DNA of 64,000 nucleotides, taken from assembly GCA_963804645.1 (NCBI GenBank), contig CAWDRG010000017.1, positions 768,001 to 832,000 on the forward strand. Direction: 5' to 3'. This document shows positions 1 to 17,962 of the stretch, one piece after another (position 1 is the stretch's first letter; every line of letters begins with the position of its first letter). The position numbers were made by a program, and so were the translations under genes. The notes beneath the pieces are model-generated. The model searched no databases. It was given only the letters and a program-made list of their open reading frames with translations, and was not told where the DNA came from. Origin of the DNA: an uncultured Bacillota bacterium (GTDB lineage: Bacteria > Sysuimicrobiota > Sysuimicrobiia > Sysuimicrobiales > Segetimicrobiaceae).

Positions 1-1
1 C

Positions 2-1270
2 GTACTGGACTGGCTCGGCGCCGGCTTTGCCGGCACTGCCCTGCCGCCCGCGCGGATCGCGGCCCACCTCGCGAGGCAGCTTGGGGGACCGGCGGAATCG
101 ACGATCCTCGCCGGCGGCCGCGCCGCGGTCACGGGAGCAGCGCTGGCCAACGGCGTCGCGTCGCACGCGGTCGAAATGGACGATCTGCACCGGCCGTCGG
201 TCATGCATCTGGCCGTCGTCACGATACCCGCCGCGCTCGCCCTCGCCGAACGGGAGCACGCCCCTGGCCGGCGCCTGCTCGAGGCGATCGTCTGCGGGTA
301 CGAGGTCGGCGCGCGGGTCGGCGAGGCGCTGGGGCAGCCGCACTACGATTTCTGGCACACCACCGGGACCGCGGGGACGTTCGGCGCCGCGGCGGCGTGT
401 GCCAAGATCCTCGGGCTCTCGCCCGATGAGACGCTGCACGCGCTCGGCACGGCCGGCACCTTGTGCGCGGGCCTCTGGGAGTTCCTCGCCGACGGGGCGA
501 TGAGTAAGACGCTGCACGCGGGACGCGCGGCGGAGACCGGCGTGTTGGCCGCGCTGCTCGCCCGCGACGGATTCACCGGCGCGTCGGCGATCCTCGAGGG
601 GGACAAGGGCGTGCTGCGGGCGATGGCCGGCGGCGGCCAGCCCGCGCGCCTGGTCGAGGGCCTCGGGACGGCGTTTCGGATCGACGGCAACTCGTTCAAG
701 CTGCACGCCGCGTGCGGGCACACGCACCCCGCCGTCGACGCGGCGCTCGAGCTCCGCCGCCGGGGGATCCGCGCGTCCGAGATCACCTCGATCCGCGTCG
801 GCACGTTCCGGACCGCCCTCGAGGTCACGTCGATCCGCGACGCCCACAACCCGTACCAGGCAAAGTTCAGCCTCCCGTTCTGCGTCGCGCTGGCGCTGGT
901 GCGCGGCCGTGTCGGACTGGGGGAGTTCACGCCGGCCGAGCTCGCCGACCCCGAGCTGCGCGCGGTGTCCGGCCGCGTCGTGCTCGCGGAAGACGGGGTG
1001 TCCAACCGGGCATATCCCGGACGGTGGCAGGCATCCGTGACCGTCGCGCTGACGGGCGGCCGGCGCGAGACCGTCCGCGTGGACGCGCCTCGGGGCAGCC
1101 CGGAGAATCCGGCATCCGACGAGGAACTGCGGGAGAAATTCGACGGACTGTGCGAGGGACGCATCCCGTCCGAGCGGCGCGACGCGATCGCCCGGGCCGT
1201 CGAACTGCTCGCCGACACGCGGGACGTCGCCGCGGTCGCGTGGGGCGCCGATGCGAACGGTCACCACTAG
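2..1270 (+). CDS. MmgE/PrpD family protein (5' end truncated by window edge)
   Basis: Frame is open from position 2 (VLDWLGAGFAG...ANGVASHAVEMDDLH). Motifs GYEVG, WHTTGT, KTLHAG, FKLHAACGHTH, AKFSLPF and RGSPENP are typical of the family. Confidence 0.9.
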   Translation, partial: VLDWLGAGFAGTALPPARIAAHLARQLGGPAESTILAGGRAAVTGAALANGVASHAVEMDDLHRPSVMHLAVVTIPAALALAEREHAPGRRLLEAIVCGYEVGARVGEALGQPHYDFWHTTGTAGTFGAAAACAKILGLSPDETLHALGTAGTLCAGLWEFLADGAMSKTLHAGRAAETGVLAALLARDGFTGASAILEGDKGVLRAMAGGGQPARLVEGLGTAFRIDGNSFKLHAACGHTHPAVDAALELRRRGIRASEITSIRVGTFRTALEVTSIRDAHNPYQAKFSLPFCVALALVRGRVGLGEFTPAELADPELRAVSGRVVLAEDGVSNRAYPGRWQASVTVALTGGRRETVRVDAPRGSPENPASDEELREKFDGLCEGRIPSERRDAIARAVELLADTRDVAAVAWGADANGHH

Positions 1271-2093
1271 CGACCTCACGGCCGCGGTCCGCGACCTGTG
1301 CATCACGGTGAATTACCGGATGGGCGACGACATGCTCCAGGCGCTCGCGCGCGCGAAAGAGGTGGAGGAGAGCGACCTCGGGCGCACCGTACTGACGCGC
1401 CTCCTCGAAAACGCGCGGGTCGCGCGGACCGACTGGTACCCGATCTGCCAGGACACCGGCCAGGCGGTGGTGTTTGTCGACCTCGGCCAGGACGTGCATG
1501 TCGAAGGCGGCGACCTGGACGCGGCGATCGACGAGGGAGTCCGGCAGGGATACCGCGAGGGGTACCTCCGGGCGTCGGTCGTGGAGAGCGCGCTGCACCG
1601 CGTCAACACGGGCGACAACACCCCGTCGATCATCTATACGCGCATCGTGCCCGGCGACTGCATCACGCTCGGCCTGCTGGCCAAAGGGGCGGGCTGCGAC
1701 AACATGAGCCGTCTCGCGATGTTGAAGCCGTCCGACGGGTACGAGGGTGCGGTCGAGTTCATCGTGCGTGCCGTCTCGGAAGCCGGCCCGAACCCAAGCC
1801 CGCCGCTCGTCGTCGGGGTGGGCCTCGGCGGCACCTTCGAGCGGGCGGCGCTGCTCAGCAAGCGGGCGTTGCTGCGGCGGGTGGGCGATCCCAGCCCGGA
1901 CGCTGCGCTCGCCGCGTTCGAGGCCGAGCTGCTGCGGCGGATCAACGAGTTGGGAATCGGCCCGGCCGGCTTTGGCGGGCGGGTGACGGCGCTCGCGGTG
2001 CACGTCGAGAGCCATGCGACGCACATCGCGAGCCTGCCGGTCGCGGTGAACCTGGATTGCCACTCCCACCGTGCGGGGCAGGTCGTGCTGTAG
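1251..2093 (+). CDS. Fe-S hydro-lyase (class I fumarate/tartrate hydratase) alpha subunit
   Basis: PICQDTG, GYLRASVV, NTGDNTP, KGAGCDN, GIGPAGFGG, HIASLPVAVN..CHSHR; overlaps the upstream gene. Confidence 0.92.
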   Translation: MRTVTTSDLTAAVRDLCITVNYRMGDDMLQALARAKEVEESDLGRTVLTRLLENARVARTDWYPICQDTGQAVVFVDLGQDVHVEGGDLDAAIDEGVRQGYREGYLRASVVESALHRVNTGDNTPSIIYTRIVPGDCITLGLLAKGAGCDNMSRLAMLKPSDGYEGAVEFIVRAVSEAGPNPSPPLVVGVGLGGTFERAALLSKRALLRRVGDPSPDAALAAFEAELLRRINELGIGPAGFGGRVTALAVHVESHATHIASLPVAVNLDCHSHRAGQVVL

Positions 2094-2178
2094 TGCGAAT
2101 GGGTCCGGGCACATCGGATCCGAGGCACACGCGCGGCGGCCGCGAACGCCGTACGGGTCGGCACCGGCGGGGCGGCTC

Positions 2179-2745
2179 GTGACTCGGTCGCTCGAGCTTA
2201 TCAGCCCGTTTAGCGTCGCGCAGGCCGAGGCGCTCCGTGCCGGGGATGAGGTGCTGTTGTCGGGGGTCGTCTACACGGCGCGCGACGCCGCGCACGAGCG
2301 ACTCGTGGAGATGCTCGGCGCCGGGCGAACACTCCCCGTGGATCTTCAAGATCAGGTCATCTACTATTGCGGTCCCACGCCGGCGCGACCGGGACGTCCG
2401 ATCGGCTCGGCCGGACCCACCACAGCCTCCCGGATGGACGCGTATGCACCGTACCTGCTCCGGGCGGCGAGGATCCGCGGCATGATCGGCAAGGGCAAGC
2501 GCTCCGAAGAGGTTCGCGCGGCTATCGTGGCGTGCCAGGCCGTGTATTTCGGCGCGATAGAGGGCACGGCCGCGCTGTTGGGCGAACGCGTCAAAGAAGC
2601 CGCGGTGGTGGCCTTTCCAGATCTCGGTCCCGAGGCGATCTACCGGCTGGTGGTCACCCGCTTCCCGGTGATCGTGGTCAACGATATATACGGGCGTGAC
2701 GTCTACGAGGAAGGTCGCGCGCGGTATCAACGATCGTCAACGTAG
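2179..2745 (+). CDS. Fe-S hydro-lyase (class I fumarate/tartrate hydratase) beta subunit
   Basis: LRAGDEVLLSG..YTARDAAH, YCGP, GPTTASRMD, MIGKG, LGPEAIY; GTG start at 2179 inferred. Confidence 0.92.
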   Translation: MTRSLELISPFSVAQAEALRAGDEVLLSGVVYTARDAAHERLVEMLGAGRTLPVDLQDQVIYYCGPTPARPGRPIGSAGPTTASRMDAYAPYLLRAARIRGMIGKGKRSEEVRAAIVACQAVYFGAIEGTAALLGERVKEAAVVAFPDLGPEAIYRLVVTRFPVIVVNDIYGRDVYEEGRARYQRSST

Positions 2746-2969
2746 ACTCGTCTCCGGCTCCCGAAGCAGTTTCGCCCCGAACGCGCGGTCGCCGGCGTCA
2801 ACACGGTCTTCCCGTTACGTGACGCGGTGTCGCGCGCCGGGTTCCGGTCGGAACGCTCTCGAAGCGACCCGCCGCAAGGTCGATGATGCCATCGAGGAGC
2901 AATCCGTGATCCGCGTATAACGCGGGCCCCAAATCGCGGGATGTGTCGACGAATGTCAGATCGGCCGCG

Positions 2970-4268
2970 TTACTGCCGTACCTGGGTGCGCAGCACCTCG
3001 AGCGCCCGTGATAGGTAGGGCGCCGCTTGAGACGGACGCCTGCACTTGAGCAGGAGGTCGCCGAGCGCATTGGATGCGCGGGCGAGGTCCGCGCGCATGT
3101 GAAGGGCTTCAAACGAGCCGATGGCCACCTTGTACCAGCGAATCGCCTCTGAAGTCTGCCCGCTGGCGTCCCGAAGGCCCGCACGAGCCAGCTCTATCCT
3201 GGCGAGCTCGGTCACGTCCCCGAACCGTTTGGCAAGCCGCTCCGCCTCGTCCAGCGCCTCGTCCGCCTGGTTGAATATGCCTTTAAGAGTCAGCGCACGC
3301 CCCAACTCGGTCAACGTGCGGGCGCGTCCGGGATCGTCGCCGATCTGTTCCTTAATCCGAAGGCTCGCCTCAATATGCTCAATCGCGCCGTCCACCTTCC
3401 CCGCGGCGAGCAGCGTGATTCCGATGCTGTTGTGAGCCCATCCGAGGAACCGCGTATCGTTCAGCGCTTCGAAGAGGTGTTGGGCCCTCGTCAGGTGCTC
3501 AAGCGCCGCGTCGAAGTCACCGCGCTCACGCCGGGCGACGCCCAGTTGGACGTGGACGAGTCCCACGCGATGGAGATCCTCTGCGGACTCCAGCAGGGGC
3601 AGGGCTTGTTGATACCAATGGATTGCGTCCGCATAATCCCCGAGCTCCAGATACGTGTTTCCCAGATTGTACAGCAGCGCCCCGCCGAGGCTGCGGTCGG
3701 GATGGTCGCACAACTGGAAGCGGCGATAGCCTTCGGCGAAGTGTTCGCGTGCCTTCGAGAGATCACGTTTGTAATATTCGATCAGCCCGAGAACGTGATG
3801 CACGCGCACGAGGTGGCGTTCGGTCCCCAGGGCTTCCGCGATCTCCCTGCCGAGTTCGACGTTGTGGCGGGCGAGATCGTATTGTCGCAGACCGGCCAGT
3901 GCGTAGGCCAAGCCGACATAACACTCCGCCTGACTGGCCTTATCCTGCTGCCCGATCGCCAAGGTGAGCGCTTCATTGAACGCCTCGGCGGCTCCGGTGT
4001 AATCGCCCGGCTTCGCCTTGGCCCAGGCCGCCGCAACGTTGACCTGCAACACCTTCGCACTCAACGTCGCGTCGTCATCCAAAATGTACGCGGGCGACAC
4101 CTGCAGGCGCCGCGCGATGAGGACCAAGGTCGCAGGTGACGGCCTGGCGCGCCCAGCTTCGAGTAAACTGACGAATCCTTTGGTCAGATCGCTACCGCCG
4201 AGCTCGGTCTGCGTGAGACCGAGCTCTTTCCGTCTTGCCCGAATGCGTTCACCCAGTGAAGACACCAC
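2970..4268 (-). CDS. XRE-type HTH + tetratricopeptide-repeat transcriptional regulator (RRNPP/NprR/PlcR-like architecture), copy 1
   Basis: N-terminal LGERIRARRKELGLTQTELG..VSLLEAGRARPS is an HTH_3 domain. It is followed by many TPR helices (LLYNLGNTY..A..WYQQAL, AHNSIG..L..GKVDGAIEHIEASL). Confidence 0.88.
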   Translation of the reverse strand: MVSSLGERIRARRKELGLTQTELGGSDLTKGFVSLLEAGRARPSPATLVLIARRLQVSPAYILDDDATLSAKVLQVNVAAAWAKAKPGDYTGAAEAFNEALTLAIGQQDKASQAECYVGLAYALAGLRQYDLARHNVELGREIAEALGTERHLVRVHHVLGLIEYYKRDLSKAREHFAEGYRRFQLCDHPDRSLGGALLYNLGNTYLELGDYADAIHWYQQALPLLESAEDLHRVGLVHVQLGVARRERGDFDAALEHLTRAQHLFEALNDTRFLGWAHNSIGITLLAAGKVDGAIEHIEASLRIKEQIGDDPGRARTLTELGRALTLKGIFNQADEALDEAERLAKRFGDVTELARIELARAGLRDASGQTSEAIRWYKVAIGSFEALHMRADLARASNALGDLLLKCRRPSQAAPYLSRALEVLRTQVRQ

Positions 4269-4381
4269 AGGTCCCCCGATGCGAAACCTACGAGACGCCG
4301 ATGCGCCTCTCGGCGATCCCTTGCCCTGCTTTTTGCAAAGTTTAGTGTATCACCTAGTCTAGATTCCTGCTACTAGAACAG

Positions 4382-4410
4382 CTCAAGCCATCTCAAGCCA
4401 ACCCGAGCCC
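4382..4410. repeat. Short direct repeats with 10-bp period upstream of HTH-TPR regulator 1 (possible operator)
   Basis: CTCAAGCCA at 4382 and 4392, with a degenerate CCCGAGCCC at 4402. Confidence 0.35.
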
Positions 4411-4496
4411 GTCGACGCAATGGAACCCCTGCAAGGACCCAGATCGAGCCCTTGCCTCCGATGAGACCCGGATTCAGTTAGAAGCTTCGCGGCTCG

Positions 4497-5009
4497 CTAA
4501 GCGCCGCCGTTGTCGTCGCCCGCGGGAACCAGCGGCGGCATGCCGTAGACGCTGCTCCCGCCGTTGTCGTCGCCTGCGGGAACCAGCGGCGGCACGCCGT
4601 AGACGCTGCTCCCGCCGTTGTCGTCGCCCGCGGGAACCAGCGGCGGCACGCCGTAGATGCTGCTCCCGCCGTTGTCGTCGCCCGCGGGAACCAGCGGCGG
4701 CACGCCGTAGATGCTGCTCCCGCCGTTGTCGTCGCCCGCAGGAACCAGCGGCGGCACGCCGTAGACGCTGCTCCCGCCGTTGTCGTCGCCCGCAGGAACC
4801 AGCGGCGGCACGCCGTAGACGCTGCTCCCGCCGTTGTCGTCGCCCGCAGGAACCAGCGGCGGCACGCCGTAGACGCTGCTCCCGCCGTTGTCGTCGCCCG
4901 CAGGAACCAACTGTGCGGCGCCCGCCGGAAGACTTGCTGCAAACAGATGAACACCAGACGTGCTGAGAACAAGCGCCCCTACCGCGACAAACATCCATAT
5001 GCGACGCAT
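4497..5009 (-). CDS. Secreted multi-repeat peptide precursor (170 aa): signal peptide + 7 full and 1 partial LVPAGDDNGGSS(V/I)YG(V/M)PP units
   Basis: ATG at 5009 is preceded by an AGGGGGT RBS. MRRIWMFVAVGALVLSTSGVHLFAA is a basic-hydrophobic Sec-type signal. The repeats are in frame and the protein ends LVPAGDDNGGA*. Confidence 0.85.
   Translation of the reverse strand: MRRIWMFVAVGALVLSTSGVHLFAASLPAGAAQLVPAGDDNGGSSVYGVPPLVPAGDDNGGSSVYGVPPLVPAGDDNGGSSVYGVPPLVPAGDDNGGSSIYGVPPLVPAGDDNGGSSIYGVPPLVPAGDDNGGSSVYGVPPLVPAGDDNGGSSVYGMPPLVPAGDDNGGA
4503..4910 (-). repeat. 54-bp tandem repeat array (about 7.5 copies), coding
   Basis: The unit recurs every 54 nt (e.g. ccgttgtcgtcgcc at 4561, 4615, 4669). 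Variation is mostly synonymous (CCT/CCC, GCG/GCA) plus V/I and V/M changes. Confidence 0.97.
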
Positions 5010-5314
5010 AGTACTACACCCCCTATTTTGATTTCTCGAGCACTCGAGTACCAAGCCAGGAAACTTCATGCGAGATCTGATTTCGCGGACTCGAAGCTTT
5101 CACGGACACAAATCTTGATCGCGCCCCACACGAGAAATGGCGTGCTATGGCGCCAAGGTTGCAGTCAATACGTGGCGTACGGTATCGAACAACCGAACGC
5201 CATATGTCCTTATGTACCTATGTACCTCCCTCGCCGAAATTAGACGTCCCCCGTCTAACTAACTGCCCACTGCCCCAGGGACTTAGCCGACGCCCGAGGA
5301 GAAGGGCTGCCGTG

Positions 5315-5435
5315 TGGCTGAAGTTTTATCAACTGCGCCGCACCTTCGCACGTCAACTAATGGAGGTCGGGCCCCCCCATCGCCACCGTACAGCGCCTCT
5401 TTGGCCATGGCAACCTGCAGAGCATCTAGTGGTAT
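5315..5435 (+). pseudogene. Tyrosine recombinase/integrase C-terminal relic
   Basis: WLKFYQLRRTFARQLMEVG, then a +1 shift in the C7 run at 5372-5378, then IATVQRLFGHGNLQSI*WY. This matches the HxLR.TFA..L..G / vq.lLGH....T..Y catalytic boxes, with an in-frame TAG at 5427. Confidence 0.7.
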
Positions 5436-5623
5436 CGGTCCCTGCCAGAGCAATCATCCGCCGCAGCTACGATACGGCGGTAACGCGGTTGCTGGGCACG
5501 ACGACCACGGACCCTGACGCGTGAGCGCAGTCGCCGTACACCGACCCGCGAGGCCAGGCGACGCGCCAAACACCAATCGGGTAAGCGTGCTACGCGTAGC
5601 GCTGGCCGAGGACTGATATTTAG

Positions 5624-5637
5624 TTGACAAACGTCAA
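5624..5637. promoter_or_regulatory. Perfect palindrome TTGAC-N4-GTCAA (candidate transcription-factor site, FNR/CRP-like geometry)
   Basis: ttgacaaacgtcaa in the AT-richer spacer between the divergent peptide gene and the HD-GYP genes. Confidence 0.4.
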
Positions 5638-6196
5638 GAATTGGTGCCGTCTGCGCGCCCTGCACAAAAAGAGACTTAGAAACGGTCCGGCTTGGCCAAC
5701 AGCCCCCCATTGCAGAAAGTTGAGTAGAGCGGTAGACTTGTGAAACAGGTAAACTTGTGGGGGGGAGCCCGCAACTCGTCCTGTAACCTCTGCGGCATTA
5801 GTACGGCCACTAGCGACTTGAAGTGACTAAATCATCGGCAAGGGGGGGACACGGAGGGCACTCAAAACTTCATATCGGGCGGGATCCGAGCGGTACCGGG
5901 CTCGGCGGCATTCCAAGCCGCAACGCCTTTCGCGGACGCCGACGTGCAGTCGACGCGGGAGGCCGAAGACGATGGCTGACGTCCATAACCGTAGCACTGC
6001 CCGACTCAGATCTAGCGCGCACAAACCAACGTAGCCGAGGACACGGTCAGCGGCGCTTACACTGGTGAACGGCAAGTGCGCATGTGCCAAGCAATCGCGG
6101 ACTGCCGGGATGCGTGTAGTAACATGGCAGGCGACGGCGGCAATAGTGATAGGAAGCTATCAACTACCGCTCGGATTCCCGCTCGCCCATGACCAG

Positions 6197-7438
6197 ATGC
6201 GAGTACATTTTCGTGAGCTTCAGGATTCTTTGCAGGCGTTCTGCGTTGTCCTCTGCGCGTTCGCGCTGGCGGCGTCATTTTTGCCCTGCCTCACAGTCAC
6301 CCGCTGATTGTCATCGGACTGGCGGTTATCTTCGCCGCCACATGCCTCGTTAGACCGATACCGAATCCCTCTGGCGGGAGCATTTTTCCGACCAACAGCG
6401 TGAAAATCGTGGCCGCGCTCCTCTGGATGCCGCAGGACGTACTGATCGGTGTCGCATGTGGGGTCGTTTCTTGGGTTGCTCCTCTTCCAAGGAGCGAGAT
6501 CTGGCGAGCGGCGAGTCAATGGTGCTGGATGGGGACTGGCCTCTGCGTCAGCGGCGCTCACGGCCCACCTCGTGCAGGGCGCGATCGAGCCCAGGCCTGG
6601 TGCAATTGACCGCGGCAGCCGTTGCGGCGGTGGTAACGAATCGCGTCATCAACGAAGGGATTTTCTCGATCTACAGATCCTTGCGATTTGGCTTTCCTAT
6701 TTCTGCCGACTTGGCGCCAAAACGTGCTCGACCAGTGGATGAGTCAGCTTCTTGCCGCGCCGATGGGGATCGTACTGGCGGCAGCGGCCGGTCGACTCGC
6801 AGCCACGTGGTCCTCCCTGGCGCTAACGGCCGTGTCCGCGCTGGCGTTACCTGATTCCACGCCAGGAGCTGGCCTATTACCATCGTGCCCAGGAAGCCGT
6901 GGCCGAAGTCGTCGAGGCGGTCGTCCGCGCACTGGAAGGGATCGATCAGAATACGCGGGCGCACGGTGACCGGGTCAGCCAGCTCGCGGGGGCGGTCGGA
7001 CAGCGTCTGCGGATGCCGGAGGCGGACCTCCGGGCCCTTCGCTTGGCGGCGCGTCTGCACGACGTCGGCTTCCTGGCGGGACCCGACGGGTCGGCGCCCA
7101 ACGACCACCACGCGGTCGCCGGCAGCCGGATCCTCGCCCAGTCGCCGGATCCGCTGATCGCAAGAATCGTACGGGCTCATCACGAACGGTGGGACGGCAC
7201 CGGAGTCCCGGACCGAACCGCCGGGCAGGCGATCCCTCTCGGTGCACGGGTCATCGCAGCAGTGGAAATCTACGATGAGGTCTGCTTCGGGATCGGCGAG
7301 GGCGGCAGCACCATGCCGCCCACCGACGCGCTCGGGCGCGTCCGCGGACTGGCCGGCACCGCGCTCGATCCGCAGGTCGTCAGCGCGCTCATCAGCGTCG
7401 TCGAGGAACAGGAACTCCAGGCCGCGGTGACGCGGTGA
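6197..7438 (+). pseudogene. Membrane-anchored HD-GYP-domain protein, interrupted by about 7 single-base frameshifts (probably assembly errors; about 412 aa when repaired)
   Basis: Hydrophobic segments chain across frames: MRVHF..AFALA/GVIFALPHSHPLIVIGLAVIF..PIPNPSGGSIFPTNSVKIVAALLW..VA/VGSFLGLLLF../VNGAGWGL../GLVQLTAAAVAAVVTNRVINEG../FLPTWRQNVLDQW../IPRQELAYYHRAQEAVAEVVEA. They lead into an HD-GYP domain (TRAHG, LHDVG, HHERWDGTGVP, LDPQVV). Shifts lie near 6271, 6457, 6490, 6514, 6593, 6699 and 6853. Confidence 0.75.
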
Positions 7439-10041
7439 GCTTGAACGGGGCCGGGATGCGCGCGTCAGCCTCCGCGCTCCCGTTGTTCGTTTGGTTCCTC
7501 GTCGCGGCCGCACTCGGCTCCCTCATCGCGGGGCTGCGCGCGATGGTGGTCGGGCAGATCCCTGAAACACTCGTGATCGCGATTACCATCGCGATCCTCG
7601 ATCTGTATCCGATCTACCTCGATCCCACGGGTGAAATCCCGCTGACCCCCGTCATCACCGTGGGGGCGGTGGTGCTGTTTGGGTGGGCGCCGACGATCGT
7701 CGGCGCCGCTGTCGGCACGCTCTTCGGGCTGTTCAGGCACCCCGCGCGGGAGGTCGTGGTCAACGGCAGCATCCGGCTCGGCGCGCTCATCGCTGCCGCC
7801 GGTCTCGCCAGCGTCGCGCCCGCGATGGGTTCGAACCGCGATGTGAGCGCGGTGATCGCGGTGCTCTATGCCGGCGCCGGGTACTGGGCGGCGTCTGTGT
7901 TCCTGTCCGCGGCCCGCCTGTGTACCGAAGACGCGGTCACGTGGCAGCGTGCCGTCAGATTCCAGCTGGCGGCCACGACGTTCCACCTGGCCGTGTTCAC
8001 CCTCGCGGCCGCCGTCGCGGTGTGGGTGATCAGCAACGATCCGTCGCGGATCGACCTCCTGCTCGTCCCTCCGCTCGCCGCCACGTTGGTGCTCCAGCTC
8101 TACCTGCCTCGAATTCTGCGCGGCGAACAACAGCGCCGCGCGCTCTCCTCGGTGTCGGTGCTCGCGGCCGCGGTCGACGCCAAAGACCCGTATACTGCCA
8201 ACCACTCGGCCGCGGTGGCCGAACTGTCCCGGCGCGTCGCGAGAGTGCTCGACCTCGACGAGCCCGACGTGCACCGCGTCTACCTCACCGGGCTGCTCCA
8301 CGACGTCGGCAAGACCGTCGTGCCGCCGGAGATTCTCCTGAAAACCGGAAAGCTGACGGAGGACGAATGGCAGGTAATGCGCTCGCACGTCGAGGCCGGC
8401 GTTCGGATCGTCCAGTCGATTGGCGGGCTGGCGGAGATCGCCCCATTCGTCGGGGCCAGCCACGAGCGCCTCGACGGGGCCGGCTACCCGGCGGGCCTGG
8501 CCGGCAACGCCATTCCCCTGAGCTCCCGCATCAATCTCGTGGTCGACGCGTACAACGCGCTGACGACGAACCGCCCCTACCGCCCGGCCCGTCCGCCTGA
8601 GGCGGCGCTCCGCGAGCTCGAAGCGCACACGGGAACGCAGTTCGACCCGCGGGTGGTCACGGCGATCCGCACCGCCCTCGGATTGAGCCGGGCGCTTCCT
8701 CCGCAGCGCGACGCGCCGGATCCGCGGGTGGTCGCGACGCTTCGTACCGCGCTCGGGCTCAAGCGCGCCCCCGAAACGCGCGAGGACGCACCAAACGCGT
8801 TGACGTTGTTCCGGCAGCCGGCATTCGCGCTCCTGTGGATCGGGCAACTCGTGAGCTTCCTCGGCGATGAAGTTTTCTTCATCGCCCTATCGCTCTGGGT
8901 CTACCGGCTCACCGGATCCGCGACGATCCTCGCGGTCGCGCTGATCGCCGCGACCGTGGGCCAAGGCCTGCTGGGACTGCTGGCCGGCGCGCTCGCGGAC
9001 CGGATGGACCGTCGCGGAGTCATGATCGCCGCTGACCTCGGGCGGGCGGTCCTCGTGGGCATGCTCCCCTTTGTCATTCTCCGGTCGCTGCCCCTAGGAT
9101 TCCTCGTCCTCGTGGTGTTGAGTGTCGGCACCGTGTTCTTTCGCGCCGCGGTCTACGGGTTGATCCCGTCGATCGTCACGCGAGCGCTCCTCCCGTCTGG
9201 CAATGCGCTGTTGCAGACGACCGAGCGCGTCGCCGAGATCGTCGGCGGGGTGTTGGGGGGGGTGATTGTGCTCACGCTCGGCTACGTCGCGGTGTTCTAT
9301 CTGGACGCCCTGAGCTTTCTCGTGAGCGCGGTGTGCATCGGCCTGATGCCGGTGGCATGGCGGGCGGGTCTCGCCGCGACCGGCCCCAAACACATCGCCA
9401 CGGACATTAAAGAAGGCCTCGACTACATCCGACACACGCCGCTGCACTGGGCGCTGGCACTCTTGATTATCCCAGGGTACCTCACGCTCGCGTTTACCGG
9501 TCTCAGAGCGCCGATGATCATCAAGGCGGCGGCGCTGCCGGCGGTCGCCTACGGCGTCGTCAACAGTGTGATCGGGGTCGGCAAGCTTGTGTCCGCGCTG
9601 TCGCTGGCCGCGATCCCGCGCGGCTGGAGCAACGTGTCGTTCGTGGTCGGATCGTTCCTCCTGACGGCGCTCGGGATCCTGCTGTTCGGCGCCACCACGT
9701 CGTACTCGGTGCTCCTCATGGGGGCGTTCCTGTTCGGCGCCGGAAATATCGCCTCGAACATCGCCAACGCGTCCATTTCCCTGTCCAACACGCCGTCCGG
9801 GATCGTGGGCCGACTGATGTCCAGCCGACAGGTCTTCATCGCCGGCACCACGCTGGTCGGCATGTTGATCTTCGGCAGGCTGGCCGACGTCGCCGGCCCG
9901 CCGTTCGCGCTCGTGATGCTGGGAGCCGTCTCGGCCGGGGGCGTGCTGATCGTGTGGTTCACCATCGGCCGCCGGGTCGCTCCGCCAACCTCTCAGGACG
10001 TGCCTCGCAGCGTCACCGTGCCGTCCCAGCGCAACGCATAG
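7435..10041 (+). CDS. Three-part fusion: N-terminal multi-TM domain + HD-GYP phosphodiesterase domain + C-terminal MFS transporter (868 aa)
   Basis: GTGA overlap with the upstream gene. HD-GYP motifs: DPYTANHS, LLHDVGK, GKLTEDEW, HERLDGAGYP, RPYR, GTQFDP. MFS motifs: FALLWIGQLVSFLGD, GALADRMDRRGVMIAADLGR, FYLDALSFLVSA, DIKEGLDYI. One uninterrupted ORF. Confidence 0.9.
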   Translation: MSLNGAGMRASASALPLFVWFLVAAALGSLIAGLRAMVVGQIPETLVIAITIAILDLYPIYLDPTGEIPLTPVITVGAVVLFGWAPTIVGAAVGTLFGLFRHPAREVVVNGSIRLGALIAAAGLASVAPAMGSNRDVSAVIAVLYAGAGYWAASVFLSAARLCTEDAVTWQRAVRFQLAATTFHLAVFTLAAAVAVWVISNDPSRIDLLLVPPLAATLVLQLYLPRILRGEQQRRALSSVSVLAAAVDAKDPYTANHSAAVAELSRRVARVLDLDEPDVHRVYLTGLLHDVGKTVVPPEILLKTGKLTEDEWQVMRSHVEAGVRIVQSIGGLAEIAPFVGASHERLDGAGYPAGLAGNAIPLSSRINLVVDAYNALTTNRPYRPARPPEAALRELEAHTGTQFDPRVVTAIRTALGLSRALPPQRDAPDPRVVATLRTALGLKRAPETREDAPNALTLFRQPAFALLWIGQLVSFLGDEVFFIALSLWVYRLTGSATILAVALIAATVGQGLLGLLAGALADRMDRRGVMIAADLGRAVLVGMLPFVILRSLPLGFLVLVVLSVGTVFFRAAVYGLIPSIVTRALLPSGNALLQTTERVAEIVGGVLGGVIVLTLGYVAVFYLDALSFLVSAVCIGLMPVAWRAGLAATGPKHIATDIKEGLDYIRHTPLHWALALLIIPGYLTLAFTGLRAPMIIKAAALPAVAYGVVNSVIGVGKLVSALSLAAIPRGWSNVSFVVGSFLLTALGILLFGATTSYSVLLMGAFLFGAGNIASNIANASISLSNTPSGIVGRLMSSRQVFIAGTTLVGMLIFGRLADVAGPPFALVMLGAVSAGGVLIVWFTIGRRVAPPTSQDVPRSVTVPSQRNA
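8644..8793 (+). repeat. Diverged 75-bp (25-aa) tandem duplication at the HD-GYP/MFS junction
   Basis: DPRVVTAIRTALGLSRALPPQRDAP followed by DPRVVATLRTALGLKRAPETREDAP. Confidence 0.85.
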
Positions 10042-10237
10042 GGCCGCCGGGCGCGGAGTCGGCCGGCCCTGGCGTACGCGCCGCCTGCCTCAGAGGTCTA
10101 GAACCCCACCCCCCAGTGTACACACGGGATGGCCGGCACCAGCGCGCGCCGGCTCAGTTTAGGCACGTCGGAGCAGTGCACGGACCTGCCGGACGCCATA
10201 CGCAGCAGCCGCCACACCAGGATGGGGGAGACGTCAC

Positions 10238-11998
10238 ATGAGATCCGATCGAACGCTCGCCTGCATGCTCGTCGTCCTGCTCATTGTCCTCGTCGCGGGC
10301 GCCGCGGCCAGCGGGGCCGGAGCGCCCGTGAACAATCCGGGCACGTTCGTCACCGAGCGCCTGGCGGATCCGCAGAGCCTCGATCCCGCCTACGCGTACG
10401 ATACCGCGAGCGAAGAGATCATCTACCCCAACGTCTACGAGACCCTGATCGGGTACGACGGCAGCGTCCTGTCCCACTATGTGCCGGTGCTGGCTGCCCA
10501 AGTGCCGAGCGTGGGCAATCACCTGATCACGCCGGACGGGCTCACGTACACGTTCCCGATCCGCGCCGGGGTGCGGTTTCACGACGGGTCCGTGATGACT
10601 CCCGAGGACGTGCGCTATTCGATCTTGCGCTTCATGCTGCAGGACCGCGACGGCGGCCCGTCGTGGCTGCTGCTCACGCCCCTGCTCGGGACCGAGAGCA
10701 CGCGCGACGCCAAGGGCAACATCGCCGTGACGTACGCGCAGGCCGCCAAGGCCGTAACGGTCGAGGGGCACAACGTGGTCTTCCACCTCGCCCATCCGTA
10801 CGGCGCGTTTCTGAGCATCATGGCGGCGTGGTCGTTTGTCCTCCCGCGCGCGTGGGCCGCGGCGCACGGTGACTGGGACGGCAGCCCGGCGACGTGGCAG
10901 CGCTACAACAACCCGAAGCTCCAGGACCGCTACGCGTTCGACCATATGAACGGCACCGGGCCGTTCCTGCTGCAGCAGTGGGACCGGCAGGCCAAGCAGA
11001 TCATTCTGGTCCGGAACCCGCAGTACTGGCGCGCGCCGGCCCGGTTGTCGCAGGTCGTGATCCGCACCGTCCCCGAGTTTGGGACGCGCCGCCTCGAGCT
11101 CCAGCGCGGCGACGCCGACCTCATCGACGTCCTGCGCCCGGATCAGCCCCAGGTGGCGGGACTGGACGGCGTGACGATCCGTGACGGCCTTCCGCAGCTG
11201 GCGCTGCTGGCCCTCGACTTCAACCTGCAGATCGACCCCACCGCCAATCCCGATATCGGCAGCGGGAAGCTTGATGGGAACGGGATCCCGCCGGACTTCT
11301 TCAGCGACGTCCACGTCCGCCAGGCGTTCGCGTACGCGTTCGACTACGGGACGTTCATCCGGGACGGATACCGGGGGGACGCGGTCCAGCCGAACGGCCC
11401 CATCATCCAGGGCCTGCTCGGATACGATGCGTCGATGCCGCGGTACACGTTCGACCGGCAGAAGGCGATCGCGGAGTTCAAGGAGGCGTGGGGCGGGAAG
11501 CTGTGGGACGTAGGGTTCCGCTTCACCGAAACGTACAACACCGGCAATGTGATCCGTCAGGTCGCCGCGCAGATCCTCAAGGACGAGGTCGAGTCGCTCA
11601 ACCCGAAGTTCCGGATCGACATCCGCGATCTCGCTTGGTCGTCGTTCCTCCAGATGGTCGGCCAGCATCGGGGCACGCTGTACGGCATGGCCTGGACGGT
11701 CGACTATCCCGATCCCGACGACTTCGCACAGCCGTTCATGGCGAGCAACGGTTCCTACCCGAAGCGGGACGGCTTCAGCGATCCCGCCGCGGACCAGCTG
11801 GTCGCGGAGGCGGCGGCCATGTCCGATCCCGCCAAGCGCGCGGCGATCTACCAGCAGCTGTCCAAGCTCTCGTACACCGACGCGCCCAGCATCTACATCG
11901 CGCAGCCGACCGGGTTCGCGGTGATGCGGACGTGGGTCCGCGGATGGTACTACAACCCGGTGATCGTGCAGGACTACGGCCCGCTGTTCAAGCAGTAG
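10238..11998 (+). CDS. ABC transporter substrate-binding protein, family 5 (OppA/DppA-like)
   Basis: Signal peptide; SLDPAYAYD, VYETLI, DGLTYTF.IR.GVRFHDG, GTGPF, W..DYPDPD. Confidence 0.93.
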   Translation: MRSDRTLACMLVVLLIVLVAGAAASGAGAPVNNPGTFVTERLADPQSLDPAYAYDTASEEIIYPNVYETLIGYDGSVLSHYVPVLAAQVPSVGNHLITPDGLTYTFPIRAGVRFHDGSVMTPEDVRYSILRFMLQDRDGGPSWLLLTPLLGTESTRDAKGNIAVTYAQAAKAVTVEGHNVVFHLAHPYGAFLSIMAAWSFVLPRAWAAAHGDWDGSPATWQRYNNPKLQDRYAFDHMNGTGPFLLQQWDRQAKQIILVRNPQYWRAPARLSQVVIRTVPEFGTRRLELQRGDADLIDVLRPDQPQVAGLDGVTIRDGLPQLALLALDFNLQIDPTANPDIGSGKLDGNGIPPDFFSDVHVRQAFAYAFDYGTFIRDGYRGDAVQPNGPIIQGLLGYDASMPRYTFDRQKAIAEFKEAWGGKLWDVGFRFTETYNTGNVIRQVAAQILKDEVESLNPKFRIDIRDLAWSSFLQMVGQHRGTLYGMAWTVDYPDPDDFAQPFMASNGSYPKRDGFSDPAADQLVAEAAAMSDPAKRAAIYQQLSKLSYTDAPSIYIAQPTGFAVMRTWVRGWYYNPVIVQDYGPLFKQ

Positions 11999-12023
11999 GC
12001 CGCGATCGGGCTCGCGCGGGCGG

Positions 12024-12050
12024 AGGCCCCCGGGAACCTCGGGGGCCTTT
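12024..12050. terminator. Hairpin terminator between convergent genes
   Basis: aggcccccg-ggaacct-cgggggcct followed by tt. Confidence 0.6.
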
Positions 12051-12055
12051 CCGTG

Positions 12056-13387
12056 CTAGCGGGGCGAGTCGGCGCGCAGCACCTCAAGCGCCCGCGAGAG
12101 ATACGGCGCGGCCTGCGACGCGCGGCCGTGTTTCAGGAGTAGATCGCCGAGCGCGTTGCACGCGTTCGCGACGTCCGCCTGCATCCCAAGCGCGGTGAAT
12201 CCGTCGATCGCCTGCTTGTAGCAGCGAATCGCCTCCGGCATCCGGCCGGTCGCCGCCCGGAGCTGGGCGCGGGCGGCCTGAATGCGGGCGCCCTCGGTGA
12301 CATCCTTGAACCGGTCGGTCAGCCGCTCGGCCTCGTCAAGCAGCGCATCCGCCGAGGCGAACTCGCCTTTTGCGATCATGGCGCGTCCCAATTCTGTGAG
12401 CGACCGTGCCCGCCCGGGGTCGTCGCCGGTCTCCGCCTTGATCCGGAGACTCGCCTCGATGTGCGCGATCGCGTCGTCGACCTTCCCCTCAGCCAAGAGC
12501 GTGATCCCGATGCTGTTGTGGGCCCATCCGAGCAGCCGCCGGTCTTCGAGCACCTCGAACACGTGCTCCGCCCGGTTCAGATGCGCCAGCGCCGCGTCGT
12601 AGTGCCCTCGCTCGCGCTCGGCCACTCCGAGCTGGACGTGCACCAGACCGAGCCGGTGCATGTCCCCGGTCGACTCCAGCAGGGCCATCGCCCGCTCGTA
12701 CCAGCGGGCGGCCTCCACGTGGTCGCCCATCTCCATGTGCGTGTTGCCGATGTTGTACAGTAGAATGCCGCCGAACCCGCGATCCGGGTGATCGAACTCT
12801 TCGAACCGGCGGTACGCCTCGGCAAAATGCCCGCGCGCCTCAAGCAGGCGGCGCTCCTGGTACGCGATCATGCCGAGCACGTGGTGGATGCGCACGAGGT
12901 GATGCGAGGCCCCGGCCGTCTCGGCAAGGTCCCGCCCGCGCTCCACGTTCCGACGGGCCAAGTCATGCTGCCGGAGACCCGCGAGCGCCGTCGCGAGCCC
13001 GATGCAGCATTCGGCCTCGAGGGCTGGATCGTCGTCCCCCGCGGCCAGCGCGAGCGCCTCGTTGAACGCCTCGGCGGCGCCGGTATAATCGCCCTGCTTG
13101 ACCTTGACCCAGCCCGCGGCCACGGTGACGCGAACCGCTTTGGCCCCGAGGGTCGTGCCTCGCTCCAGAAAATAGCCGACGGGCCTCTGCAGGCGGCCGG
13201 CGAGCACGCCCAGGGTGTCCAGCGACGGCTTCGCGCGGCCTTTTTCGATCAGGCTGATGAACGCTTTGCTGACGTCAGCGCCGCCGAGTTGGGTCTGAGT
13301 CAGGCCCAACTCCTTCCGTCGGGTCCGAATGCGTTCCCCCAAGGAAGACAACGTCGATCCCCCGGTCTCGCGTCGGTGCGCGCCCAT
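12056..13387 (-). CDS. XRE-type HTH + TPR regulator (RRNPP-like), copy 2, paralog of 2970-4268
   Basis: LGERIRTRRKELGLTQTQLGG. Shares GDYTGAAEAFNEAL, LGWAHNSIGITLLA, HIEASLRIK, GDDPGRAR and SQAAPYLSRALEVLR with copy 1. Start could be the TTG about 11 codons downstream. Confidence 0.88.
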   Translation of the reverse strand: MGAHRRETGGSTLSSLGERIRTRRKELGLTQTQLGGADVSKAFISLIEKGRAKPSLDTLGVLAGRLQRPVGYFLERGTTLGAKAVRVTVAAGWVKVKQGDYTGAAEAFNEALALAAGDDDPALEAECCIGLATALAGLRQHDLARRNVERGRDLAETAGASHHLVRIHHVLGMIAYQERRLLEARGHFAEAYRRFEEFDHPDRGFGGILLYNIGNTHMEMGDHVEAARWYERAMALLESTGDMHRLGLVHVQLGVAERERGHYDAALAHLNRAEHVFEVLEDRRLLGWAHNSIGITLLAEGKVDDAIAHIEASLRIKAETGDDPGRARSLTELGRAMIAKGEFASADALLDEAERLTDRFKDVTEGARIQAARAQLRAATGRMPEAIRCYKQAIDGFTALGMQADVANACNALGDLLLKHGRASQAAPYLSRALEVLRADSPR

Positions 13388-13521
13388 CCACTACCGCGAA
13401 GCGCTCGGTACGGCTGGTATCTGATACTGGATCCCGGGTCTCGAACCCTTGTGCATTCGCAGCACCCGGCCAGCCCGGGGGCCGGCCGGCAGTCGGATCG
13501 GGATCGGGGCGGCGAGGCCGG

Positions 13522-14898
13522 TCAGAAGAGACTGAGCGTCACGAGCGCGTGCGCGCGGCTGGTATGGGGGGTCAGATCCACGGGCTGCACGTGGCGGACC
13601 GTAAACCCCTCTTTCGAGAGCGCGACCACGTCGCGGACCAGCGCGCCGAGGGCCCCTCCGAGGTACACGATGTGCCGCACCCCCGCGAGTTTCAGGGTCC
13701 GGCCCGCCGCCGCGGGCAGCCCGATGCCGGAGGGGTGCAGGAACGCAAGCCGGGTGGCCTCGCCGCGAATCGCGTCATGCCAGTCGCTGCCGAATCCGTC
13801 GACGACGAAGGTGACGTTGGCGAAGTCATCGAGCGCCGCATTCGTCCGTGCGGTGTCCAGGTCCCGCTCCGACGTCACCGCGATGACCCTGCCCACGTCA
13901 AGCGCGAGGTGGAAGGTGAACGCGCCGATCCCGGCGTTCAGCTCGACGAGCGCGTCCGCGCGGGACCCATCGAGCTCTCCGAGGATCATTTCGAGGAGTC
14001 CCGGGAATGCGCGCGCGTTGATGGGAAAGTCCGCCAGCGGAGGGACCTGCAGCCGGACCCCCAGCACCTCCTTCCGGAGATGTCCCCTGCCCCACAGAAG
14101 GCTGCTGTCATACTCCTCGACCCCATGCGCCCCGGGACGCGGGATGAACTCCACGAGGCCGGTCAACCCGGGGATCTGGTCCAAGACGGCGTCCACGACC
14201 CGCTCCCGGTCGTCCGACGACATCGCGTGCCGCACGACGAACCCGACCATGAGGTCGCCGGTCGTCTCGGCGACTCGAAGCCGCACGCCGCGAATCGCGC
14301 CGGGGCTCTGCCCGTATGGCGCAAAACGGGCCGGCCACACCCTCCGCAAGGCGTCGAGCGCCTGCACCAGCGCGGGGTGGCTGGTGCTGCACTGCCGGAT
14401 GTTCACGAGGTGATCGGACCCCCATGCGTGGAGTCCGAGTATCAGCTCGTCGCCCCGCGCGCCCACAAATACGTTCATCTGCGTCCGGTACTCCCACGGA
14501 GGCTCCCACCCGACCGCCGGCGGCATCGACAGATCCGGGTACCCGGCGTCCCGCAGCGCATCGCGCACGAGGTCCTGTTTCTGCTCGAGCTGCACCGTAT
14601 ACGCGAGATGCTGCCACTGGCAGCCTCCGCACACGCCAAAGTGCGCGCATCGAGGCTGCACGATGTGGGGGGACGACCGCAGCAGCTTCACGAGCCGGCC
14701 GCGGAGCGTGCCGCCGTCCGAGGCAACGATGCGGACGACGGCACGGTCGCCCGGCGCGGCGTACGGAACGGCCAGCGTCCGACCGCGGAGGGCGGCCAGC
14801 GCCTCCCCCCCGGCGCCCATGCGGTCTATGCGTACGGTCACCTGCCGGCCGGGGAGTGGGGTCGAACGCGGCGCGGTATCGCCGAGCGGGCGCGTCAT
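13522..14898 (-). CDS. RlmD/TrmA-like TRAM-domain class I SAM-dependent RNA methyltransferase homolog (catalytic motifs degenerate)
   Basis: TRAM domain (VRIDRMGAGGEALA..VPYAAPGD), Fe-S motif PRCAHFGVCGGCQWQH..KQ, WEYR, C-terminal VQPVDLTPHT. Confidence 0.82.
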   Translation of the reverse strand: MTRPLGDTAPRSTPLPGRQVTVRIDRMGAGGEALAALRGRTLAVPYAAPGDRAVVRIVASDGGTLRGRLVKLLRSSPHIVQPRCAHFGVCGGCQWQHLAYTVQLEQKQDLVRDALRDAGYPDLSMPPAVGWEPPWEYRTQMNVFVGARGDELILGLHAWGSDHLVNIRQCSTSHPALVQALDALRRVWPARFAPYGQSPGAIRGVRLRVAETTGDLMVGFVVRHAMSSDDRERVVDAVLDQIPGLTGLVEFIPRPGAHGVEEYDSSLLWGRGHLRKEVLGVRLQVPPLADFPINARAFPGLLEMILGELDGSRADALVELNAGIGAFTFHLALDVGRVIAVTSERDLDTARTNAALDDFANVTFVVDGFGSDWHDAIRGEATRLAFLHPSGIGLPAAAGRTLKLAGVRHIVYLGGALGALVRDVVALSKEGFTVRHVQPVDLTPHTSRAHALVTLSLF

Positions 14899-15081
14899 GC
14901 GCGCACCGTCCGGCGGGATCGCGGGCACGGCGTGCCGCTGCCGGCGTGCCCGCGGGACACGCCGTGCGCGAGACTCCGTACTGGACGGCCCGCCAATCTC
15001 CGAGACGGCATCGGCTCGCTCAGTCTTCGGTTTATTCGCGCGCGGGTTGGAACTCCAGCCGGCGCGGCGTGGGAACGACGG

Positions 15082-15942
15082 CTACCGTAGGCGCTCGAGC
15101 AGCGGTTCGACGTCCGCTCCGCTAAGCTCCCGCGGCCACATCGGGAGCCGCTTGGCCTCCGGCTTCGGCTGAGGATTCCGGTAGATGATCCCGAGCGGAA
15201 GCTTTTCGCGGCGTCTGAAGTCCTGGATCAAGTCGCGCGCCGCATCCTTACTCGAGGGATCGTGGTCCGCGGGGACCGCCTCGACGTGCGCCCGGAACCA
15301 GTCGTAGGTGTTGATCTTATTATAGGTCACGCACGGGGAGAAGTCGTTGACGAGCGCGAACCCGTGGTGCCGCACGCCTTCGACGATCATCTGGGAGGCG
15401 TGCTTCGGATCTCCCGAGAACGACTGCGCGATGAACGTCGCCCCGCAGGTCAGCGCGATTTCGATCGGATCGATAAACGGCGGATGCTCCTCCGACGACC
15501 GCCAGTTCGGCTGGCCGAGCCCCGCGGACGGAGAATCCTGCCCCTTCGTCAACCCGTACACGCCGTTGTTCATGATGACGAGCGTCACGTTGGGATCGCG
15601 CCGGCAGATGTGCACGAAGTTCTCGATCCCGATCGCCAGCGTGTCGCCGTCCCCGGCCATGACCAAGACGGTCAGCTCCGGGTTCGCCATCTTGGCGCCG
15701 AGGGCGTACGCCAGGGCGCCCCCGTGCGTGCCGTAAAACGAGTTGCCGTTCAGGTAGTTCCGGATCTGCCCCGAGCACCCGATCCCGCCCACGAGCAGCA
15801 CCTCCGACGGCGTCAGCTCGAGCGTCGTCAGGGCCGCCTTCGCCGCGTTCAGGAGGCCGAAGTCGCCGCATCCGGGACACCATTGGATGCGGTGCCGCGG
15901 TGCCGCATTCTGCTCCCAGACGGACTTGGTCGCTTCAGCCAT
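15082..15942 (-). CDS. 2-oxoacid:ferredoxin oxidoreductase beta subunit (TPP-binding)
   Basis: WCPGCGDFG, GIGCSG, GDGD, NNGVYGLTKGQ.SP, SPCVTYN. Confidence 0.95.
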   Translation of the reverse strand: MAEATKSVWEQNAAPRHRIQWCPGCGDFGLLNAAKAALTTLELTPSEVLLVGGIGCSGQIRNYLNGNSFYGTHGGALAYALGAKMANPELTVLVMAGDGDTLAIGIENFVHICRRDPNVTLVIMNNGVYGLTKGQDSPSAGLGQPNWRSSEEHPPFIDPIEIALTCGATFIAQSFSGDPKHASQMIVEGVRHHGFALVNDFSPCVTYNKINTYDWFRAHVEAVPADHDPSSKDAARDLIQDFRRREKLPLGIIYRNPQPKPEAKRLPMWPRELSGADVEPLLERLR

Positions 15943-17809: not shown

Positions 17810-17962
17810 TGCCGACGCCTTCCTCCTGGGGAGCCGCAGGGCGCGACCATCCGTGCCACCCGAGCGTCGCGGCTCGAGCTTCTGAGATAGCATAGTAACA
17901 TGTTTCTTACCGCAGCGTCTATTGCCGATCCGGGGCCGGGATCGGGGCGTCGCAGAACACAG

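Follow-up and report, generated by a model that had tools for sequence, protein, structure and literature searches.

A multi-copy propeptide gene and an HTH-TPR regulator gene as a probable RRNPP-type signalling pair in Candidatus Sysuimicrobiota

Introduction

Peptide signalling of the RRNPP(A) type has been described as a trait of the Firmicutes/Bacillota (PMC9765709, PMC10075063, PMC12700828). RRNPPA proteins have been reported almost only in Bacilli (PMC9765709), and the survey made with RRNPP_detector covers Firmicutes and viruses (PMC10075063). Here and below, statements carrying a PMC number refer to parts of the text of the paper concerned. The DNA analysed here, which we call the window, is a stretch of 64,000 nucleotides (64 kb) from an uncultured soil bacterium (contig CAWDRG010000017.1 of assembly GCA_963804645.1). 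It contains a gene for a repeat-containing precursor with a signal-peptide-like leader, located upstream of the gene of a regulator, TPR1, that has a helix-turn-helix (HTH) and tetratricopeptide repeats (TPRs). The locus raises the question whether precursor and regulator constitute a peptide-signalling pair, and whether the genes around them belong to the same system. A first-pass annotation had proposed a cassette composed of the precursor, two HTH-TPR receptors, a pair of membrane HD-GYP genes, a major facilitator superfamily (MFS) transporter and a peptide-binding protein. Judging from the DNA and from a structural model, we find that the precursor and TPR1 are probably an RRNPP-type pair, and that the other neighbours are mostly located elsewhere in related genomes.

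The precursor gene and its peptide array

The pair and the non-coding regions next to it consist of the following elements.

2970..4268, minus strand: receptor TPR1, XRE-type HTH plus nine TPR motifs, 432 amino acids, cytoplasmic (no signal or membrane segment seen)
4269..4496, minus strand: spacer of 228 bp between precursor stop and receptor start, no consensus terminator on the minus strand
4497..5009, minus strand: open reading frame (ORF) of the precursor, predicted to be exported, 170 amino acids, ATG at 5009, stop at 4497-4499
4911..5009, minus strand: signal-peptide-like leader (precursor residues 1-33) with two arginines, a 12-residue hydrophobic core and Ala-x-Ala-type sites, according to a hydrophobicity heuristic
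4497..4910, minus strand: peptide array, seven times 18 residues LVPAGDDNGGSS[VI]YG[VM]PP, then LVPAGDDNGGA and the stop
5010..6196, no strand: intergenic region between the precursor and the divergent HD-GYP genes, 1.2 kb, about 58% G+C, candidate regulatory region

The precursor starts with the basic residues M-R-R, and a purine-rich ribosome-binding site directly precedes its ATG. The array consists of seven complete units of 18 residues and a last one of 11. Each of these eight copies is centred on GDDNGG, a core whose nucleotide sequence does not vary between them. As DNA, it is a 54-bp tandem repeat (7.5 copies, 98% matches, score 756 in Tandem Repeats Finder) and by far the strongest tandem repeat within the window. 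The first-pass annotation had described a secreted repeat precursor upstream of, and co-oriented with, the HTH-TPR gene, and the coordinates, the leader, the eight units and the Pfam domains all agree with that description. Searches of the precursor against Pfam and NCBIfam gave no match.

The G+C content in this part of the window is about 58-70%. The region 5010-6196, which is about 80% identical at the nucleotide level to that of the closest relative (genome G004), contains no convincing ORF and no Rfam match. An Rfam search of window positions 1-16000 with E up to 0.1 gave no match either, and a consensus scan of positions 2700-6400 yielded one promoter-like and four terminator-like sites, which is not above the result for shuffled sequences.

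Five related genomes (G001, G002, G003, G005 and G006) share a conserved element of about 70 nt, located 30-100 nt before the precursor start; it contains a GC hairpin and an inverted repeat of 6 bp that reads AAGTAA..TTACTT in three of these genomes. The element is lacking in G004 and in the genome of the window (G000), whose own upstream region differs.

Conservation of the pair across the class

Conservation was analysed in 94 genomes of the class, all of which belong to one order; this agrees with the published description of the phylum, which has a single class with a single order (PMC11604079). A receptor homologue (E up to 1e-25) was found in 76 of the 94 genomes. By family, the homologue is present in f1 (22 of 22), f5 (31 of 34), f2 (20 of 22), f6 (1 of 1) and f7 (1 of 1), and the counts are 0 of 12 for f4 and 0 of 1 for f3. 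The genome tallies include the unpublished genomes G034 and G062, neither of which was taken into the reading of loci.

For 83 distinct receptor loci, the upstream DNA was screened for propeptide genes, defined as co-oriented ORFs of at most 200 amino acids whose end is no more than 450 nt away from the receptor start and which include a hydrophobic stretch of 12 residues (Kyte-Doolittle mean of at least 2.0); the leaders of the propeptides are thus judged by this hydrophobicity rule. The resulting list was curated by eye, which removed translated tRNA and rRNA, a 146-amino-acid cupredoxin-like protein and fragments of upstream genes. An automatic count based on motifs (44 of 83) was dropped because it missed obvious cases.

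A co-oriented propeptide gene with a hydrophobic leader is located upstream of the receptor gene at 53 of the 83 loci. Three further pairs, with receptors of a third paralogue type, lie outside the set of 83, and the pair is carried by at least 54 of the 94 genomes. The relatives are not independent of each other, and the locus counts therefore overstate the number of evolutionary events. The first-pass annotation had made its proposal depend on linkage between homologous HTH-TPR genes and genes for small secreted peptides, and this linkage is what the 53 loci display. No exporter, modifying enzyme or immunity gene is conserved beside the pair; the receptor gene is the only constant neighbour of the propeptide gene.

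These data also bear on the explanation that the repeat ORF is spurious, or encodes a structural repeat protein that lies next to a regulator gene by chance. High-GC DNA yields many false ORFs, and the precursor matched no Pfam or NCBIfam family. However, leader and core are conserved across the 53 loci while copy number and spacers change, and the reverse-strand frame across the array is interrupted by seven TAG stops. We regard this explanation as exceedingly improbable.

Copy number and core types in the relatives

In 25 of the 53 propeptides, the core is repeated, from two to about 12 times. The number of core copies, which in the relatives rests on draft assemblies, is 8 in the precursor of the window, about 12 in G004 (where a frameshift in that assembly interrupts the array), 5 in G003, 3 in both G001 and G006, 2 in G002 and 1 in G005. 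Single-copy relatives have 40-69 amino acids, with the core at or just before the C-terminus. Sister-genus precursors of 55-57 amino acids, for instance, end in ...AGDDNPAGG, ...DGDVNGAGG, ...AGDDNDGSH, ...LGDDAGGSH or ...AGDDPGGH.

More distant receptors are paired with other cores. Those of families f2 and f5, which are only 32-38% identical, go with one to five copies of GHGGGELL (also ...AGHGGGELL), GHGDGELL, GDGNIEVI, G[RS]GD.DS[FY] and similar cores; in several of these relatives, an A-x-A site of the signal-peptidase type immediately precedes GHGGGELL, and in G023 and G029 an 8-residue unit is present three times without a spacer. A paralogous receptor clade in f1 (about 31% identical) is associated with two to four GQDG[SP]GQ cores preceded by ...PLVPF, which resembles the ...PPLVPA/Q found before each core in the genus of the window. 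The third type of pair, in genus g5 (receptors 26-28% identical), has propeptides ending in ...DGGSGAGG, ...DGDSGPGG or ...DGENGGGG. One genome, G005, contains two diverged pairs, with the cores GDDNGPG and GQDGSGQ.

Repeat units have lengths of 8, 9, 12-17, 13-14, 18 and 18-22 residues, and multi-copy forms are found in several separate, well-supported clades of the receptor tree, a quick IQ-TREE reconstruction. Because multi-copy forms with differing unit lengths occur in separate receptor clades, copy-number amplification has happened repeatedly. The short core is therefore the element that is both conserved and amplified, as a mature signal should be. The type of core goes with the receptor clade.

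Architecture of the receptor and its paralogue

TPR1 matches the Pfam families HTH_3 (E 2.4e-10, residues 9-62) and TPR_12 (E 4.9e-31), and also TPR_1, TPR_2 and TPR_MalT. None of the curated NCBIfam families matched it, and neither Pfam nor NCBIfam, as searched, holds an NprR model. The automatic annotation of JGI labels 7 of 88 receptor homologues as quorum-sensing regulator NprR. When 81 aligned receptors were searched for invariant polar residues as candidate peptide contacts, D311, R324 and R357 were the only ones to stand out apart from residues of the HTH and structural Ala and Gly.

An AlphaFold2 model of TPR1, built with 59 homologues, has a mean pLDDT of 93 and predicts five HTH helices followed by 18 TPR helices. 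We compared this model with known structures by re-scoring the 958 best PDB chains of a Foldseek search with VIA-align. RapJ with PhrC (4gyo) is among the best matches, with Z 32.2 and a root-mean-square deviation of 4.0 over 348 aligned residues. The Rap protein of phage phi3T with its pheromones scores Z 31.5-32.2 (8rsv and 8rst about 32), RapF with peptide Z 31.3, apo NprR (5dbk) Z 28.9, the NprR-NprX complex (4gpk) Z 27.0, and AimR Z 22-23. The TPR domains of eukaryotic LGN/Pins score Z 27-29. PlcR is not among the best 50 of the 958 re-scored chains and may be present further down. In the structural comparison that the first-pass annotation had suggested, the predicted fold comes closest to Rap and NprR and argues for a peptide-binding solenoid of this type, though not exclusively. 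Together with the linkage at 53 loci, it supports the proposal of an RRNPP-like pair of receptor and propeptide.

A complex prediction for TPR1 residues 66-432 (with alignment) and precursor residues 144-190 gave a score of 0.02, the mark being 0.32, and speaks neither for nor against binding. Contigs assembled from four metatranscriptome runs, all of the same study, map to the receptor gene and cover positions 3147-4217. The contigs from these RNA libraries do not cover the precursor gene and most other genes; for the precursor this is no evidence of silence, since they are short-read contigs and the gene is a tandem repeat.

The window encodes a second protein of this type.

12056..13387, minus strand: receptor paralogue TPR2, HTH-TPR, 443 amino acids, 67% identical to TPR1

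As the first-pass annotation had stated, TPR2 is a convergently oriented paralogue, and in the receptor tree it is the sister of TPR1 (SH-aLRT 98). There is no precursor gene upstream of it and a TRAM-domain gene (13522-14928) is located there instead; TPR2 is an orphan receptor.

The small exported protein might be a product controlled by the HTH-TPR regulator rather than its ligand, for instance a metal-binding, antimicrobial or matrix peptide, or a multi-core precursor resembling those of ribosomally synthesised and post-translationally modified peptides (RiPPs). Metal binding is conceivable because cores such as GHGGGELL and GDDNGG contain many His, Asp and Glu residues, and in NCBIfam TPR1 has some similarity to the RiPP-associated TPR protein HaaT (55.7 bits, far below the cut-off of 1125). 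Nonetheless, the pair lacks the conserved modifying enzyme, dedicated exporter and immunity gene that would speak for such a product, the receptor is the constant partner of the propeptide, and its architecture is that of the peptide-binding Rap/NprR type. We therefore consider a regulated product quite unlikely.

Comparison with known RRNPP systems

We compared the window pair with the five criteria of RRNPP_detector (PMC10075063), and found agreement in four of them. A Sec-type leader, according to the hydrophobicity heuristic, is present in the precursor and in 53 relatives; the receptors, of 432 and 443 amino acids, lie in the range of about 250-500; they contain TPRs; and propeptide and receptor genes are direct neighbours on the same strand with nothing between them. 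The fifth, propeptide length, is exceeded: the precursor has 170 amino acids, compared with 21-50 for validated propeptides and a default of 10-100 (PMC10075063), because it holds eight copies, and the single-copy orthologues have 40-69. The gap of 228 bp between the two genes is likewise too wide for the reference range (-50 to 191 bp; PMC10075063).

The NprR-NprX system, known from the Bacillus cereus group, resembles the window pair in that the receptor has an N-terminal XRE-type HTH, nine TPRs and about 430 amino acids, an adjacent gene encodes a Sec-type propeptide, and its structures match the TPR1 model over about 350 residues, with about 13% identity in the structural alignment. In contrast, the family described here has Gly/Asp-rich cores and up to 8-12 copies per precursor, and the genome of the window has outer-membrane genes and no Spo0A. 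PlcR-PapR and AimR-AimP share with it the cytoplasmic HTH and TPR receptor and the adjacent exported propeptide, but these receptors have fewer TPRs and lower structural scores. Rap proteins have an N-terminal three-helix bundle and act on proteins, not on DNA, whereas TPR1 has HTH_3 at this position. Propeptides with several pheromones are established for Rap-Phr (PMC11343458, PMC9765709): the precursors of phages phi3T and phi105 hold several pheromone copies that are released by extracellular proteolysis (PMC11343458). These Phr precursors have few copies (PMC11343458), compared with two to about 12 in the family described here.

Several observations weigh against reading the precursor and TPR1 as such a pair. 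At 30 of the 83 receptor loci no propeptide was found, though four of these have less than 350 nt of upstream sequence. Propeptide-less loci comprise those of TPR2 in the window genome and in G004, 12 that lie beside a tRNA gene and a contig end in an rRNA operon, three beside a cupredoxin-like gene, and a remainder. All five variable nucleotide columns of the seven full units fall outside the core, but with this small number of changes the pattern does not reach significance (about 0.09 by chance). Shared ancestry alone would also make core types agree with receptor clades. In NprR, PlcR, Rap and AimR systems, the propeptide gene is located downstream of the receptor gene, and in all 53 pairs found here it is upstream. 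We know of no RRNPP pheromone that resembles cores so rich in Gly and Asp. The fold match is not exclusive, since the LGN/Pins domains lead the ranking by Foldseek E-value; at the sequence level, Rap proteins are matched only weakly (E 1.6e-6 and 2.9e-4), the 60 best PDB matches of the receptor do not include NprR, and the other matches are generic TPR proteins. An additional point, the probable outer membrane of the host, is treated in the next section.

Among the receptors, a propeptide-less clade (45-57% identical to TPR1; loci L025-L030, L032 and L034-L038) adjoins a tRNA gene and the apparent end of an rRNA operon, where contigs break.

Host lineage, envelope and a possible mechanism

The sequence relationships place the host lineage in Candidatus Sysuimicrobiota (CSP1-3). 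In a receptor cluster 48% identical to TPR1, the named members come from Candidatus Segetimicrobium genomatis (bacterium ANGP1), which the NCBI taxonomy assigns to Candidatus Sysuimicrobiota, and this is also the commonest label in the nearest ESM-Atlas cluster (215 members). On the basis of these cluster members and labels, Firmicutes was rejected as the taxon.

The genome of the window (96.8% complete) contains no Spo0A_C match. It does contain an Omp85-family gene (E 3.9e-31) and LpxC (E 1.2e-84), and in control genomes the same searches gave matches in two-membrane bacteria only. The host cell therefore probably has an outer membrane, and the impression of the first-pass annotation that this is not a typical Firmicute was well founded. 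For cell-cell signalling this is a difficulty, because a peptide exported by Sec would first reach the periplasm, and action on another cell would need two crossings of the outer membrane.

The same pair might accordingly serve as a private cue, the exported peptides remaining largely in the periplasm and, once re-imported, reporting secretion, periplasmic protease activity or the state of the envelope to the HTH-TPR regulator of the same cell. The outer membrane makes this a serious variant, and the Sec-type leader, unaccompanied by a conserved exporter gene, is in keeping with it. However, the cores are small and hydrophilic and could pass general porins, and their repeated amplification would better fit dilution into a shared medium. 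The data fit both readings alike; to a private periplasmic cue we give a low probability.

For signalling between cells by the precursor and TPR1, we infer each biochemical step from what was directly observed, namely the two genes and their conserved pairing, the differing copy numbers, the receptor's architecture and the taxon. The 170-residue precursor would be exported by Sec, as its leader suggests, and then cut into up to eight short Gly/Asp-rich peptides of 7 to 18 residues, as the relatives suggest. Since the N-terminus of the core follows a conserved L-V-P-A/Q site, the mature peptide would begin with GDDNGG. One of the many ATP-binding cassette importers of family 5 (Opp/Dpp type) may bring it back into the cytoplasm, where, by analogy with the Rap/NprR-like fold, it would bind the concave face of the nine-TPR domain of TPR1, and perhaps that of TPR2, thereby altering the action of the N-terminal HTH at operators. 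The tandem array would raise the peptide yield per transcript, and the divergent HD-GYP genes are candidate targets.

In a full-text literature search (supplements not covered), no paper was found that describes pairs of the RRNPP type from bacteria with two membranes or from any phylum but Bacillota. PMC11604079 and PMC11962464, two studies of Candidatus Sysuimicrobiota, do not use the word "quorum" in their main text (supplements not covered). We tentatively put forward, as a possibility well short of certainty, that RRNPP-class peptide quorum sensing is not confined to Firmicutes and is near phylum-wide in Candidatus Sysuimicrobiota, bacteria with outer-membrane and lipopolysaccharide genes. 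It would there employ small, hydrophilic, porin-passing peptides rich in Gly, Asp and His, repeatedly selected poly-pheromone precursors (up to 8-12 copies), and, within one family, orthogonal channels (GDDNGG, GQDGSGQ, DGxxGxGG) alongside orphan receptors. If the pair works as proposed, the RRNPP mechanism would also operate in an uncultured phylum that is abundant in soil and whose envelope has two membranes, one would have to ask by what route a peptide signal encoded in the genome gets across an outer membrane, and precursors with one to about 12 copies would provide a natural series for studying the evolution of signal dosage. The central claim can be tested in vitro without cultivation, since the peptides are short and easily synthesised and the receptors are soluble.

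ESM-Atlas clusters of HTH-TPR proteins of about 425-450 amino acids labelled Armatimonadota, Dormiibacterota, Actinomycetota and Chloroflexota are leads for propeptide-linked receptors in other soil phyla.

Genes surrounding the pair

Three further genes lie between the intergenic region and TPR2.

6197..7438, plus strand: first HD-GYP-type gene, membrane N-terminal part 6197-6898 interrupted, 6899-7438 open; neighbour with a possible link to the pair
7435..10041, plus strand: fusion of membrane domain, HD-GYP and MFS, 868 amino acids, HD_5 (E 4.6e-37) and MFS_3/MFS_1; neighbour with a possible link to the pair
10238..11998, plus strand: family-5 solute-binding protein with signal peptide, SBP_bac_5 (E 8.6e-65), no adjacent permease genes; probably an incidental neighbour

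The first-pass annotation had described two translationally coupled membrane HD-GYP genes, the second fused to an MFS transporter. The second was confirmed: in the translation of 7435-10041 the HD and GYP motifs are readable, and it is a predicted phosphodiesterase. For the first gene the picture is different, because the frame 6197-7438 contains five in-frame stops. Its open part, 6899-7438, encodes 179 amino acids with HD_5 only (HD and a GVP variant of the GYP motif) and no membrane part, and it does overlap the second gene by 4 nt. In G004, the N-terminal membrane region is open and a single frame of 1294 amino acids spans both HD-GYP units and the MFS part; furthermore, one RNA-library contig, from a related strain, differs at 6699 by the deletion of a single nucleotide. 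An indel of this assembly or strain may thus account for the break. The description of 10238-11998 as an orphan OppA/DppA-like protein agrees with its Pfam family and with the lack of adjacent permease genes; it has 56 tblastn matches in its own genome, where family-5 binding proteins are strongly expanded, and is one of about 50 paralogues.

According to the first-pass annotation, all these genes form one cassette with the precursor and the receptors; the MFS or solute-binding protein would then move the peptide, and hydrolysis of cyclic dinucleotides would be the output. The HD-GYP genes are indeed divergent from the precursor gene across the shared 1.2-kb region, and this arrangement is kept in G004. 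However, when five 17-kb loci of the same genus were compared with six window proteins, HD-GYP and MFS genes were found beside the pair only in G004, being away from it at the other four, and the solute-binding protein at none of the five, that of G004 included. An orthologue of the HD-GYP::MFS fusion is present in G001, G002, G003, G005 and G006 on a contig other than that of the pair, and at the order level (G023, G026, G027, G028, G029 and G031) there is no receptor match on the contig with the HD-GYP/MFS genes. HD-GYP domains, moreover, are very numerous in the genomes of the window's family. The synteny that the annotation had expected in related genomes thus holds for propeptide and receptor and mostly fails for the other neighbours; a fixed cassette is not supported by these loci, and a single system comprising all the genes has, in our judgement, a low probability.

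A looser association is suggested by genus g5, where the orthologous unit of an HD-GYP gene and an HD-GYP::MFS gene is located 1.6-5.4 kb from a different pair, that of the third type (L105 in G015, L106 in G010 and L107 in G013). Adjacency of HD-GYP::MFS and propeptide/HTH-TPR pairs would then amount to two events in about 13 genera, a count made post hoc; on this gene order, the link is suggestive. In G010, a gene for a TRAM-type methyltransferase lies between the third-type pair and the HD-GYP unit, and a TRAM-domain gene is also the neighbour of TPR2.

Throughout family f1 the HD-GYP::MFS fusion is retained in its full length, with 46-70% identity. At the order level, its parts are encoded by separate, adjacent genes. 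A second HD-GYP gene precedes the fusion. In G004 (L019, 5532-9416), G001, G012 and G014 the open frame has 1226-1294 amino acids, and the two HD-GYP units and the MFS part may there be one protein.

Downstream of the pair in G001, G002, G003 and G006 (L020-L023) we found a gene for an N-acetylmuramoyl-L-alanine amidase with AMIN and Cu_amine_oxidN1 domains, which in the first three of these genomes, but not in G006, is preceded by a phosphoesterase-family gene. Both are possible target genes.

The flanks of the locus (2-2745 and 15082-17893) encode functions of ordinary metabolism: a MmgE/PrpD-family protein, a two-subunit class I fumarate hydratase and subunits of a 2-oxoacid:ferredoxin oxidoreductase.

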